Of a stretch of DNA of 64,000 bases, positions 6,178-12,394 are shown piece by piece; positions within the stretch are counted from its first letter, which is position 1, and every line of letters begins with the position of its first letter. The notes under the pieces were generated by a model that had not been told where the DNA came from, made no database searches, and saw only the letters and a program-made list of their open reading frames with translations. The position numbers and the translations under genes were made by a program. Origin of the DNA: Candidatus Eiseniibacteriota bacterium (GTDB lineage: Bacteria; Eisenbacteria; RBG-16-71-46; JABDJR01); NCBI GenBank assembly GCA_963783375.1, contig CAWANH010000003.1:259418-323417 (forward strand), read 5' to 3'.

Positions 6178-6885
6178 CTAGGGAGAGTCCGGGGCGTCCG
6201 CGTCGTGGGCGCACTCCCCCGGCGCCCCCACCCATGCGCTCCCGTCGGTGAAGACCTCCTTCTTCCAGATGGGAACGTCGGCCTTCAGGCGCTCGATCAG
6301 GTGGCGGCAGGCCTCGAAGGCCTGGGCCCGGTGGGGAGCGGCGGCCACCGCCACCACGCTCGGCTCCCCCACCCCGATCCGCCCCAGGCGGTGGTGGAGA
6401 TAGACCGCGATCACCGGCCAGCGATCGCGCGTCTCGGCCAGGATGCGCTCCATCTGGGCCAGGGCCATCGGCTCGTAGGCCTCGTATTCGAGGTGATCCA
6501 CGTCGCGATCCATGGAGGGCGTGCGCACCGTGCCCTCGAACACCGCCACCGCGCCGGCGGCGTCCCGGTAGGCCGCGCGCTTCAACGCGTCGCCGTCCAG
6601 GGCCTCCCGGGTGAGAGCCGCGGCCGGAGGCTCGTCGGGGGCCCCGCCGCTGACCGGCGGGATGAGAACGATCTCGGCGCCGTCGTCGAGCGGCGCCTCG
6701 TCGGCGATGAACTCGGTCCCCCGGGCCATGCGGCAGGAGGCGATGAGATCGCGCCAGCGGGGATGGAGCTCGGCCAGCCGTCTCCGCGCCGAGGCGGCGG
6801 TGGCGCCGGACTCCAGTTCGAGGGACAGTCTCCCGGTTCCCAGGGCTTCGCGGAGCGCGGCGAAGGTCGCGACCTCAACCCGCAT
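6178..6885 (-). CDS. moaX: Molybdopterin synthase MoaD-MoaE fusion (MoaX-like)
   Basis: N-terminal FAALRE...IPPVSGG (MoaD) in frame with FEGTVR...LEYEAY...HRLG...VPIWKKE (MoaE). Confidence 0.9.
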   Translation of the reverse strand: MRVEVATFAALREALGTGRLSLELESGATAASARRRLAELHPRWRDLIASCRMARGTEFIADEAPLDDGAEIVLIPPVSGGAPDEPPAAALTREALDGDALKRAAYRDAAGAVAVFEGTVRTPSMDRDVDHLEYEAYEPMALAQMERILAETRDRWPVIAVYLHHRLGRIGVGEPSVVAVAAAPHRAQAFEACRHLIERLKADVPIWKKEVFTDGSAWVGAPGECAHDADAPDSP

Positions 6886-8648: not shown

Positions 8649-9962
8649 ATGAGCACCGATCAATCGATCAAACCGGCCACCGGCAAGCTGGGGATCCTTC
8701 TCCCCGGCATGGGGGCGGTCGCCACCACCTTCGTGGCCGGAGTGGAGGCCGTCCGCCGGGGAAAGGCCAAGCCCCTGGGGAGCCTCACCCAGATGGGAAC
8801 GGTGCGACTGGGAAAGCGCACCGAGAACCGCGTGCCCGCCATCAAGGAGTTCGTGCCTCTGACCGGGCTCGACGACCTCGTCTTCGGGGGCTGGGATCTG
8901 TTCGAGGACGACATGTACGCCGCGGCCATGAAGGCCGGGGTGCTGGAGAAGGATCTCCTCAACGAGCATCGTGAGTTCCTGGCCGGGATCAAGCCGATGC
9001 CCGCGGTCTTCGACAAGCGGTACGTGAAACGGCTGGACGGACCCAACGTCAAGTCCGGCGCGAACTGGTACGAGAAGGCCCAGGCCCTCATGGAGGACAT
9101 GCGGAACTTCAAGGAAAAGAACGGTTGTGACCGGCTGGTCACCGTCTGGTGCGCGTCCACCGAGGTGTTCATGAAGCCTTCGGGAGCCCACCAGAGCGTG
9201 AAGGCGTTCGAGGAGGCGATGAAGGCGAACTCCCCCGACATCGCTCCCAGCCAGGTCTACGCCTACGCCTCCCTGATGAGCGACGTCCCCTTCGCCAACG
9301 GCGCCCCCAACCTGACCGTGGATCTCCCGGCCATCCACGAGCTGGCCCGGGAGCGGTGCCTCCCCATCGCGGGCAAGGACTTCAAGACCGGCCAGACCCT
9401 CATGAAGACCGTGCTGGCCCCCATGTTCAAGGCCCGCCTTCTCGGGGTGGCCGGCTGGTACTCCACCAACATCCTGGGGAACCGGGACGGCGAGGTGCTG
9501 GACGATCCCGAGTCCTTCAAGACCAAGGAGGAGTCGAAACTCGGGGTGCTCGAGCACATCCTCCAGCCCCAGATCTATCCGGACCTGTACGGGAACATGT
9601 ATCACAAGGTCCGCATCAACTATTACCCGCCCCGGGGAGACAACAAGGAGGGGTGGGACAACATCGACATCTTCGGGTGGCTGGGCTACCCGATGCAAAT
9701 CAAGGTGGACTTCCTCTGCCGGGACTCCATCCTGGCCGCCCCCATCGTTCTCGACCTGGCCCTGTTCATGGACCTGGCCCGGCGGTCGGGGATGCGGGAC
9801 ACCCAGGAGTGGCTCTCGTTCTACTTCAAGAGCCCCATGCACGCCGAGGGGCTCTACCCGGAGCACGACCTCTTCATCCAGCTCATGAAGCTCAAGAACA
9901 CCCTCCGGCACCTGAAGGGGGAGGAGCTGATCACCCACCTGGGAAACGAGTACTACGACTAG
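8649..9962 (+). CDS. ino1: myo-inositol-1-phosphate synthase
   Basis: GMGAVATT NAD-binding, VWCASTE, FANGAPN, GKDFKTGQT, STNILGNRDG, CRDSILAAPIVLDL motifs. Confidence 0.95.
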   Translation: MSTDQSIKPATGKLGILLPGMGAVATTFVAGVEAVRRGKAKPLGSLTQMGTVRLGKRTENRVPAIKEFVPLTGLDDLVFGGWDLFEDDMYAAAMKAGVLEKDLLNEHREFLAGIKPMPAVFDKRYVKRLDGPNVKSGANWYEKAQALMEDMRNFKEKNGCDRLVTVWCASTEVFMKPSGAHQSVKAFEEAMKANSPDIAPSQVYAYASLMSDVPFANGAPNLTVDLPAIHELARERCLPIAGKDFKTGQTLMKTVLAPMFKARLLGVAGWYSTNILGNRDGEVLDDPESFKTKEESKLGVLEHILQPQIYPDLYGNMYHKVRINYYPPRGDNKEGWDNIDIFGWLGYPMQIKVDFLCRDSILAAPIVLDLALFMDLARRSGMRDTQEWLSFYFKSPMHAEGLYPEHDLFIQLMKLKNTLRHLKGEELITHLGNEYYD

Positions 9963-10041
9963 CCCGACGCAGCATCGGGTTCGTGAACAAGCCGGGCTGA
10001 TCGCTGCGGGAGCGCCGGACGGCCGGGCCCCGGGCACGCGC

Positions 10042-10075
10042 GGGGCGTCCTCCCCCCGGGAGGGCGCCCCTCTTT
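10042..10075 (+). terminator. Putative intrinsic terminator after ino1
   Basis: GGGGCGTCCTCCC / GGGAGGGCGCCCC 13-bp stem (one G-U pair) followed by TCTTT. Confidence 0.55.
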
Positions 10076-10093
10076 CGTCCCCCGCCCGCTCTT

Positions 10094-10102
10094 TGCTATT
10101 CT
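10094..10102 (+). promoter_or_regulatory. Putative extended -10 promoter for the mini-efp/efp unit
   Basis: TG-C-TATTCT about 28 nt upstream of ATG 10131, which carries a GGAGG SD-like motif. Confidence 0.45.
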
Positions 10103-10130
10103 CTTCGGTCCCTCCGTAACCCACGGAGGC

Positions 10131-10346
10131 ATGCCGGAGCGGGATCCGGACCGGGCGGTCCGGCTGGAGGACCATGAGTTCCAGTTCCGCTATCGTTCCG
10201 ACGACGACTTCGCCTTCATGAACCAGGGAACCTGCGAGACGATCACCCTCTCCGCCGCCGTGCCGGGCGACAACGCCAAGCACCTCCAGGAGAAGATGGT
10301 GATCGACACCCGTGACGACAGATTCGTGGAAAGGGTCACCGAATAA
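10131..10346 (+). CDS. Mini EF-P-derived ORF (internally deleted efp copy: domain II plus C-terminal tail); small protein or pseudogene
   Basis: RLEDHEFQFRYRSDDDFAFMNQ...LQEKMVI-DTRDDRFVERVTE aligns with downstream EF-P (44/61 identical by manual count); stop TAA is 1 nt before efp ATG. Confidence 0.7.
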   Translation: MPERDPDRAVRLEDHEFQFRYRSDDDFAFMNQGTCETITLSAAVPGDNAKHLQEKMVIDTRDDRFVERVTE

Positions 10347-10347
10347 C

Positions 10348-10914
10348 ATGTCCATCCCAGCCACTCAAATCCGAATCGGCATGCTCCTGGTCGTGGACGG
10401 CAAGCCCCACCGGGTCATGTCCAAGCAGCACATCACCCCGGGAAAGGGGAACGCGGTGGTCCAGACCGTGCTCCAGAACCTGGAGACCGGGGGGAATTCC
10501 AACCAGCGTTTCCGCTCCGCCGAGCAGGTGGAGCCGGCCCGCCTGGAGAGCCACGAGCTCCAGTTTCTCTATCGCTCCGGGGACGATTTCACCTTCATGA
10601 ACCAGGAGTCCTACGAGATGATCAACCTATCCGCGGAGGTGCTGGGCGAGGCCGCCAAATACCTCCAGGAGAACATGGTCATCACGGCCCAGTACTGGCA
10701 GGGGAAGGTCGTGGGGATCGAGGTGCCCATGACCGTGGTCTTCCGGATCACCGAATGCGACCCGGCCATGAAGGGGGCCACCGCCTCCGGCGGACCCAAG
10801 CCGGCCACCCTGGAGAACGGCCTGGTGGTCAAGGTGCCCCAGCATCTGAGCGTGGGCGACCTGGTGAAGGTGGATACCCGGGACGACAGCTTCGTGGAGC
10901 GGGTGACCGAGTAG
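10348..10914 (+). CDS. efp: Elongation factor P
   Basis: PGKG loop, QFLYRSGDDFTFMN, KGATASG..KPATLENG, VKVDTR. Confidence 0.96.
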   Translation: MSIPATQIRIGMLLVVDGKPHRVMSKQHITPGKGNAVVQTVLQNLETGGNSNQRFRSAEQVEPARLESHELQFLYRSGDDFTFMNQESYEMINLSAEVLGEAAKYLQENMVITAQYWQGKVVGIEVPMTVVFRITECDPAMKGATASGGPKPATLENGLVVKVPQHLSVGDLVKVDTRDDSFVERVTE

Positions 10915-11047
10915 CTTCCACCGCCGAGGCCTCGAATCCGGGGCCGGTCAACCCCATCCCCGCCTTTGACATATCCCCGGGTTCGGGCTCTAATAGGCTC
11001 GTGTGCACCCACCCTGGATGGTCCGGGCGGAACGGCGGAGGTTGAAC

Positions 11048-12394
11048 ATGGCCAGACTCCGGGTCCGGTTTCCCTGGTTCCTTCCCTTCCTCGCCGTTCT
11101 CTCCCTCGCCGCGCCGGCGGCCCCGGCGACCGCCGCGCCTCCCGACACCGCCTCGGCCTCCGCCGTCCCCGGATTCGTGCTGTGGGCCCAGCTGGACGAC
11201 GTGATCGGCCCCATCACCGCCGGCTACCTCACCGACGCGGTTCGGGACGCCGACCGGCGGAACGCCAACGCCCTGGTGATCGAGCTGGACACTCCCGGCG
11301 GGCTCGACACCGCCATGCGGCAGATCATCAAGTCGATCCTGGCCAGCGACGTCCCGGTCTGCGTGTGGGTGGCCCCCAACGGGGCCCGCGCCGCCTCGGC
11401 CGGGGTCTACATCGCCTACAGCGCCCATGTGGCGGCCATGGCCCCGGGAACCAACCTGGGGGCGGCCACCCCGGTGAATCTGGGGGGGGGTATGGACTCC
11501 ACCATGGCCCACAAGGTGACGAACGACGCCGAGGCCTACATCCTGAGCCTGGCCCGGCTCCGGGGGCGGAACGAGGAGTGGGCGGCGGAGGCGGTCCGGA
11601 AGGCGGTCTCCCTTCCCTCCGGGGACGCGGTGAAGGAACATGTGGTGGACTTCATCGCCCGGGATCCGCGCGAATTGCTGGAGAAGATGGACGGGCTCAC
11701 GGTGAAGACCGCGACCGACTCCAGCTTCGTGATCCACACCGCGGGGGCGGAGATCCGGGAGTACCCGATGTCGGCCCGGTACCGGGCGCTCTCCATCCTC
11801 AACAATCCGAACGTGGCCTACATGCTCCTCCTGCTCGGGTTCTACGGGCTCTTCTTCGAGCTTTCCAGCCCGGGGGCGATCTTCCCCGGGGTCCTCGGGG
11901 GAATCTCCCTCATCCTGGGGCTCTTCGCCCTGCAGAGCCTCAGCGTCAACTACGCCGGCCTGCTGCTCATGGCCCTCGGCGTGGTCCTCTTCTTCCTGGA
12001 GACCCAAGTGACCAGCCACGGAGTCCTCGCCATCGGCGGGACGGTCTCGCTCTTCGCGGGATCGCTCCTCTTGATCGACGCCCCCGCCCCCTACCTCCGG
12101 GTTTCGCTCAAGGTCATCCTCCCGGCGGTGGGAGCCTCGGCCGCCTTCTTCATCTTCGCCGTCACCATGGCGCTGCGCGCCCAGCGGCGGAAGGTGGTCT
12201 CGGGGGTCGAGGGCCTGGTGGGCTCGATCGGGGTGGTGCGCACTCCCCTGGATCCCGAGGGGAAGATCTTCGTGGCCGGGGAGCACTGGACGGCCCGTTC
12301 CGCGACCGGGGCGCCGATCCCCCAGGGGGCGCGGGTGGAGGTGGTTTCCGTGGATCGGCTCAAGGTCTTCGTCAAACCGGTCGGGGACTCCTGA
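11048..12394 (+). CDS. nfeD: NfeD membrane-bound serine protease (ClpP-class domain)
   Basis: [25 protein letters not shown] bundle, C-terminal GEHW OB domain. Confidence 0.92.

Follow-up and report, generated by a model that had tools for sequence, protein, structure and literature searches.

A small open reading frame that resembles part of EF-P and stops directly in front of a complete efp gene raises the question whether it encodes a protein of its own, acts as a leader for the gene behind it or is what is left of a lost gene. We examined this arrangement in a 64,000 nt stretch of DNA (the window, to whose first letter all positions refer) by comparison with related genomes, metagenome loci and contigs of public sequencing runs.

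Structure of the efp locus

The mini-ORF occupies positions 10131-10346 of the plus strand and is open over all 71 codons, with no frameshift or premature stop. Its residues 11-58 match residues 65-112 of the EF-P encoded by the downstream gene (here called efp2) at 32 of 48 positions, residues 59-71 match residues 176-188 at 12 of 13, and its TAA is separated by a single nucleotide from the efp2 ATG at 10348. On recomputation all of these values, together with the lack of domain I, agreed with the preliminary description of this locus. The only Pfam match is to the EF-P OB domain (PF01132), which lies above its cut-off on residues 16-59 (36.7 vs 27 bits). Domain I with its tip loop, the site of the Lys, Arg or Asn, is missing and columns 1-54 of the alignment are empty; the three-domain set of EF-P (KOW, OB, OB) is thus incomplete and the TIGR00038 score is 33.2 bits for a cut-off of 185.8. 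The gene efp2 (10348-10914, plus strand) encodes an intact EF-P of 188 aa that scores 215.4 bits against the same profile, has all three Pfam domains and carries a Lys-tip PGKG loop, TPGKGNAV. It is the one full-length efp copy in the genome, with the mini-ORF as one partial copy.

Upstream of the pair lies ino1 (myo-inositol-1-phosphate synthase by Pfam, 8649-9962), followed by a weak terminator-like hairpin (10042-10080, plus strand; 1 found vs 0.7 expected in shuffled sequence). An extended -10-like motif (TG-n-TATTCT) at 10094-10102 on the plus strand is predicted to be the ancestral efp promoter, as judged by eye and by conservation, with a similar motif preceding efp in three metagenome loci (L041, L042, L043) and four genomes (G001, G004, G006, G007). 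The motif had been reported as part of the mini-ORF; it stands as a motif but is located upstream of the frame, and a consensus promoter scan called neither this motif nor any other promoter-like site. It is followed by a predicted leader hairpin with a 7-bp stem and a 5-nt loop (10111-10129, plus strand), whose 3' arm includes a GGAGG (10125-10129). Elsewhere in the window (6178-6885, minus strand) a ThiS/MoaD-family domain and MoaE are fused in one ORF, which we take to be a known fusion type.

Tandem efp genes in relatives and the origin of the mini-ORF

We found efp in 39 of the 41 genomes searched, with two copies in two genomes other than this one (G001 and G003), both of the same genus. 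Each of these has a complete first gene, efp1, with the loop TPGNWRGM, then a stop codon, one base and efp2 with the loop TPGKGNAV. The closest of the 80 metagenome loci retained (of 434 matches, in a scan that covered 40 of 64 parts) is L041, at 92.6% nucleotide identity in ino1 and 91.8% in efp2, and it also holds an intact efp1-efp2 pair, with a 2-nt gap. The order of tips in the intact tandem pairs is Asn (PGNWRG) then Lys (PGKGNA) (L041:1195-2249; L002:1498-2629 and L003:1501-2632 (minus strand)). Within the tandem loci efp1 and efp2 share 74-75% identity, and most of their differences fall in domain I. In G001, G003 and L041 the two genes follow each other in the same orientation between ino1 and nfeD, and the order ino1-efp-nfeD (window 8649-12394) is kept across the taxonomic order. 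Related organisms represented by contigs of runs X1, X3 and X20 likewise have an intact domain III reaching the efp2 start. Two of the three same-genus genomes therefore carry the tandem intact pair, and the third, G002, the nearest GTDB species (valS 95.9% nucleotide identity), has no assembled efp, the region being missing from its assembly. Single-copy efp genes have an Asn tip in G004, G007 and the outgroups of the order, G008 and G009, and a Lys tip in G005, G006 and L042-L048, where no second efp-like piece was found in the available DNA. In G004 and G007 an extra gene lies between ino1 and efp. An Asn-tip efp at L084:1139-1695 seems to change frame at about codon 112, with tblastn matching it in two pieces, which may be a sequencing error.

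Alignment with L041 shows how the mini-ORF was derived from efp1. The promoter-like motif and the leader are homologous, after which about 216 nt are gone, comprising the efp1 Shine-Dalgarno (SD) sequence, the start and codons 1-64 and with them domain I and its PGNWRG loop. The joint of this first deletion is at 10160-10163 (plus strand), where CCGG is common to both sides and leaves the exact cut ambiguous by some bases. Next follow efp1 codons 65-112 (10161-10304, plus strand), which make up most of the domain II OB fold and contain 12 of the 13 amino-acid changes specific to this branch. A second deletion, of 189 nt or 63 codons and in frame, took away the last part of domain II and the greater part of domain III; its joint is at 10302-10304 (plus strand), with ATC common to both sides. 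The frame ends with efp1 codons 176-188 and the stop (10305-10346, plus strand), and this stretch includes GAAAGGGT (10329-10336), the weak SD-like site of efp2. The proposal in the preliminary description of a twice-deleted former efp was thus right, and the relatives identify that gene as the upstream Asn-tip paralogue.

Codons 1-11 of the mini-ORF (10131-10163, plus strand) correspond to the former 5' untranslated leader. Positions 10131-10164 align to the L041 efp1 leader with a score that none of 2000 shuffled sequences reached, whereas 1125 of 2000 shuffles did as well as the alignment to the first 85 nt of efp1 and 1008 of 2000 as well as that to efp2. As codons 1-11 align to untranslated leader, the resemblance of 'IRTG' to 'QIRIG', earlier read as an out-of-frame trace of the EF-P N-terminus, is leader sequence and was rejected as a relic, and the ATG at 10131 is not the old start. 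L041 has no ATG at the corresponding position, ATC stands there in two contigs of run X5, and on this comparison the leader ATG looks newly made.

The remnant could instead stem from a part of the neighbouring efp2 that was duplicated recently, and domain II by itself is uninformative on parentage, with 25 of 144 nucleotides differing both from L041 efp1 and from L041 efp2. However, the remnant occupies the slot of efp1 behind the leader of efp1, and it carries the marks of efp1: D68, shared with L041 efp1, as well as D101-N102, and GAA AGG at codons 184-185, which is found in all 4 upstream copies and in none of 14 further efp genes examined from the order. Over 183 nt it differs from L041 efp1 at 28 positions and from the efp2 next to it at 37, and a tree joins it to L041 efp1 with 69% bootstrap. 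We therefore consider descent from efp2 highly improbable.

Tandem paralogues are able to break assemblies, and the whole region is missing from G002, so that a collapsed efp pair would be one way to obtain such a structure artificially. The check for misassembly was answered by one 316-nt contig of public run X3 that is identical to positions 10112-10427 without a single difference and bridges both deletion joints; X3 is possibly the source sample, in which case the contig represents a second assembly rather than a second population. In addition the remnant has many private substitutions present in neither paralogue. On these grounds misassembly was rejected, and we give it next to no credence. 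The comparison with public runs used contigs of 8 of the 20 listed runs, and runs with a small share were kept out as habitat evidence. A contig of run X7 matches 9950-10166 with 1 difference and ends before bridging the joint. The two X5 contigs cease to match at 10164 with 3 loose letters each, the place where they stop giving a weak hint of an X5-type relative without the first deletion. In the contigs of one RNA run none lay over the remnant's own deleted part.

No second lineage with the remnant was found among the 41 genomes or among 142 further loci. The frame is thus absent from every relative searched, which is one half of the outcome (absence from close relatives together with a lack of translation) that the preliminary description had named as grounds for regarding it as a relic. 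The mini-protein was a singleton in a search of 5.8 billion proteins over the range of 39-125 aa (2 candidates scored), and a PDB sequence search gave 0 matches at E 0.001.

Coding potential of the remnant and initiation of efp2

In order to address whether the remnant is under selection we compared it with L041 efp1 over 61 codons, which gave 16.2 nonsynonymous and 11.8 synonymous differences and an omega of 0.31. Controls from the same two organisms were lower, at 0.10 for efp2, 0.13 for efp2 domain II and 0.09 for ino1 (Fisher p 0.011, 0.005). However, pairs of intact efp1 genes had omegas of 0.14, 0.23 and 0.29 over the same 61-codon block, the highest being that of G001 vs G003. When changes were polarised by hand using G001, G003 and the efp2 genes, 13 amino-acid and 4-7 synonymous changes fell on the remnant branch, a ratio that fits neutrality (p 0.77, 0.17), whereas the ratio of the efp2 control was rejected (p 2e-5, 3e-4). 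The maximum likelihood (ML) omega of this branch was 2.5-3.6 times the background in three set-ups over the 61 codons, with p values of 0.048, 0.11 and 0.14 against background and 0.039, 0.15 and 0.36 against an omega of 1. This intermediate value, though weakly resolved, would suit a gene that served a function early on the branch and was released from constraint afterwards, and efp1 may have been drifting over about the second half of the branch that leads from the L041 split. The dN/dS comparison that had been called for is thus divided, the omega of 0.31 exceeding its controls, as relaxation would predict, and intact efp1 values of up to 0.29 and borderline ML tests weighing on the other side.

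The radical changes L>R, Y>C and L>P noted earlier are all present. The many synonymous differences from the neighbouring efp, which had been taken as a sign of old divergence under selection, have another meaning: they are differences between paralogues, mostly accumulated in the divergence of the two genes and largely older than the decay. Seven of the 13 new residues (74R, 82A, 87G, 89C, 91T, 99P and 109K) occur in 0 of 152-153 homologues.

These residues bear directly on whether the 71-aa product might be a functional chimeric protein with a single OB fold that binds the ribosome or RNA and tunes EF-P. The match to PF01132 remains above its cut-off and, as read from the alignment, the second deletion links a domain II strand to the last domain III strands at roughly equivalent places. 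Against such a function, the unprecedented substitutions include L74R, E87G, Y89C and L99P, and the product lacks the loops of domains I and III by which EF-P contacts tRNA and mRNA; according to the available text of PMC12856214, the key ribosome contacts are made by the domain I tip loop and by one loop of domain III. There is also no homologue of such a length in the 39-125 aa range searched and no relative that has it. The suggestion of a regulator or leader peptide made of one OB fold consequently finds no counterpart in any relative, and we regard a functional mini-protein as very unlikely.

The preliminary description also treated the GGAGG as a usable SD sequence for the mini-ORF. It is predicted to pair with the genome's own 16S tail at -9.5 kcal/mol but ends 1 nt before the ATG, a gap that is too short for SD function, and it falls in the 3' arm of the predicted 7-bp hairpin; on this spacing and predicted pairing we rejected it. 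The best pairing at a gap of at least 4 nt is -2.9 kcal/mol. Intact efp1 genes have SD sequences of -11.5 to -13.9 kcal/mol at a 7-11 nt gap, and this element is deleted here. A generic anti-SD probe and the 16S tail of the genome gave agreeing results. In a crude genome-wide count GGAGG preceded ATG at a gap of 1 nt 158 times, which is at the level of the same-phase background (152 and 135 at gaps of 10 and 13), vs 246 times at a gap of 7. The L041 leader folds into a 6-bp stem with a 5-nt loop at the place of the hairpin and the G001 leader does not clearly do so; overall, the leaders of the three loci (here, L041 and G001) fold no better than shuffled sequence. A further GGAGG in remnant codons 12-14 (window 10166-10221) is followed 3 nt later by an ATG (10174) in another frame, which opens 15 codons. 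This GGAGG arose by a synonymous-site change and is probably due to chance.

The remark that efp lacks a clear SD sequence holds for efp2 in that its SD-like site is weak, with -4.8 kcal/mol at 12 nt here. In L041 the same energy is reached at 13 nt, and values of -7.8 and -6.9 kcal/mol were obtained for G001 and G003. The site lies in the 3' end of efp1, where the codon AGG is constant at position 185 although it makes up only 4.4% of Arg codons in the long ORFs of the genome, and this constancy of a rare codon suggests that the efp1 3' end may serve efp2 initiation.

The proximity of the two frames raises the alternative that the remnant has been kept open as a coupling leader. In that case the new leader ATG would have been selected once the first deletion had taken the efp1 start, ribosomes would reach the stop and reinitiate at efp2, and the peptide would be free to drift, so that a drifting protein would be expected here too. 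All 4 tandem-type loci place the stop 1-2 nt ahead of the efp2 ATG, the efp2 SD is weak, and the mini-ORF ATG is in frame while missing or ATC in relatives. Close stop-start pairs are often but not always coupled (13 of 14 tested pairs according to the available text of PMC6728339).

The low chance of an open frame is a further point for coupling. Following 13-21 random substitutions a frame of this kind stays free of stops in 62-74% of cases; shuffled leaders have an in-frame ATG in 9% and any in-frame start in 32%, and the leader's single ATG is in frame. Combining an in-frame deletion (1/3), the lack of a stop (0.62-0.74) and an in-frame start (0.09-0.32) gives a joint chance of about 0.02-0.07, an estimate that is post hoc as the case was selected because its frame is open.

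For the same reason the weight of this example is reduced, and it comes from a single lineage. The 1-nt spacing of a GGAGG that is predicted to be paired, and the background-level count at that gap, also speak against a coupling leader. Of the properties of a leader ORF, the stop adjoining the downstream start is present and was inherited from efp1; the mini-ORF is predicted to lack an efficient initiation site of its own and is not conserved across relatives. The earlier explanation that the frame was kept because efp needs coupling therefore meets a start and SD that are non-ancestral and badly placed, and the 2-7% chance of an open frame keeps it as a minority reading, which we hold to be improbable but worth retaining.

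We conclude that the mini-ORF is a remnant of efp1 and most probably a pseudogene without protein function. An intact orthologue stands at the same locus in relatives while essential parts are deleted here, and the reading is based on that intact pair, on the leader origin of codons 1-11, on a ratio of nonsynonymous to synonymous changes that fits neutrality and on the deleted SD. Several observations are less comfortable for it: 71 codons have no frameshift or stop, the second deletion and the ATG are both in frame, the ML branch test is equivocal next to the omega of 0.29 for intact G001 and G003 efp1, domain II is equidistant from both L041 genes with a tree at 69% bootstrap, and the efp2 SD-like site is weak. 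Under the pseudogene reading efp1 would have been lost once the Lys-tip efp2 could serve alone, and the last 13 codons and the stop would persist as the initiation region of efp2. The latter would likely be made from the ancestral promoter via its own weak SD-like site, with the open frame being incidental and translated weakly at most. The remnant itself is then ordinary gene decay, in which one member of a tandem efp pair has recently become a pseudogene, and the value of the remnant is that of a marker: it likely marks the loss of the Asn-tip EF-P, with the Lys-tip EF-P kept, in this bacterium.

EF-P types across the order and in known systems

Four states are seen at ino1-efp-nfeD in the order, namely Asn-only (G004, G007, G008, G009), the Asn and Lys tandem (G001, G003, L041), Lys with an Asn relic (here) and Lys-only (G005, G006, L042-L048). 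In trees the Lys-tip efp2 nests with weak support among the Asn-tip genes of the order. The two paralogues separate in a tree of domain I from which the loop was removed (key supports 55-64%) and intermix in domains II-III, the pattern that gene conversion between tandem copies would give. A possible history is a duplication near the base of the family, a switch of the tip in one copy and reciprocal losses, the present genome having been caught during the loss of efp1. Trees of valS and nfeD (the former without G006) were too weak to order events across the family. A horizontal origin of efp2 is unsupported by the trees, at the same supports of 55-64%, and a short foreign tract at the loop remains conceivable. 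The valS of G006 (L209) has a lower TIGR00422 score and is longer than that of the other nine genomes, and may be of different origin.

Loop tips switch repeatedly in this EF-P clade, with PGNWRG, PGNLRA/G, PGKGNA, PGKGQA and PGKGRG all represented (L041-L182, L010-L030). Counts of tips among the 142 loci (NWRG 16, NLRA 62, KGNA 64) mirror the search patterns, not abundance. No EpmA or EpmB (TIGR00462, TIGR03821) scored above cut-off in any of five genomes, the present one being 97% complete, so that the epmA and epmB that go with the Lys-EpmAB type were not found alongside efp2. As for EfpL/YeiP (TIGR02178 or NF003392), efp2 and L041 efp1 reach 119.7 and 112.6 bits vs a cut-off of 264 and their tips are Lys and Asn, not Arg. 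Loss of the ValS PPP as a sign of EF-P dysfunction was not seen, PPP being kept in 10 of 10 genomes. Among 10 genomes of the order, seven, this one included, have a gene of the deoxyhypusine-synthase family (L193-L199) that scores above cut-off; it was not found in the Lys-only G005 (88% complete) and G006 (100%) or in the Asn-only G007 (75%), a distribution seen in few and related genomes.

The tandem Asn/Lys pair is probably of more interest than the remnant. Together efp1 and efp2 form a natural matched pair in which to ask by what means the rare Asn-tip EF-P relieves stalling at polyproline and whether the Lys-tip copy is active in the absence of EpmA and EpmB. A bolder version of the history, which we hold only as an outside prospect, is that the debris of a dying Asn-tip paralogue has been reused as a leader ORF delivering ribosomes to the Lys-tip EF-P, midway in a cycle of duplicating, swapping the tip and discarding that needs no horizontal transfer. 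If the coupling reading were true, the locus would be a clear example of a pseudogene giving rise to a leader ORF.

In relation to the EF-P family itself (TIGR00038; PF08207, PF01132 and PF09285), efp2 and L041 efp1 are full members; the remnant retains the larger part of the central OB domain along with the 13 C-terminal residues, and differs in lacking the KOW domain, the tip loop and nearly all of domain III. Asn tips make up 2.23% of 1166 EF-Ps (PMC6544042), and efp1 resembles the Asn-tip EF-Ps of PMC6544042 and PMC11388002 in having Asn at the tip and Pro two residues before it; the available text of these two papers gave no data on the activity or modification of such proteins and mentioned no Asn/Lys pair in tandem. 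A literature search, mostly outside subscription journals and at the level of titles and abstracts, returned no account of efp genes in an Asn/Lys tandem or of a decayed efp, and 0 papers on EF-P with PGNW.

With regard to termination-reinitiation coupling (PMC6728339, available text), the locus shares a stop beside the downstream start and an SD-like motif in the 3' end of the upstream gene. It differs in that the upstream gene has no initiation site of its own, as judged from the DNA, and coupling may have lapsed.

According to the available text of PMC11388002, an efp pair is present in 11.0% of genomes, with different tips in 86.5% of these, and 83% of the pairs belong to different sequence families, mostly EF-P and EfpL/YeiP; genomes with these two are also the subject of 10.1101/2024.04.15.589488, as far as its accessible part goes. 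The tandem loci are similar in having two efp genes with different tip residues. Unlike the EF-P and EfpL genomes, the pair here is in tandem and close (74-75% identical), has Asn/Lys rather than Lys/Arg tips, lies below the EfpL cut-offs and is intermixed in domains II-III.

The same available text describes replacement of the ancestral EF-P by transferred types in Planctomycetota and Thermotogota, where the newcomer arrives with its modifier and ValS loses its PPP. Common to those cases and the present one is that an efp of the ancestral type is lost and another type stays. Here, in contrast, efp2 nests within the order's own efp clade, albeit with weak support, no EpmA or EpmB is found above cut-off and the ValS PPP is kept, which suggests that a switch of EF-P type can come about through duplication and loss at the locus itself instead of through transfer.
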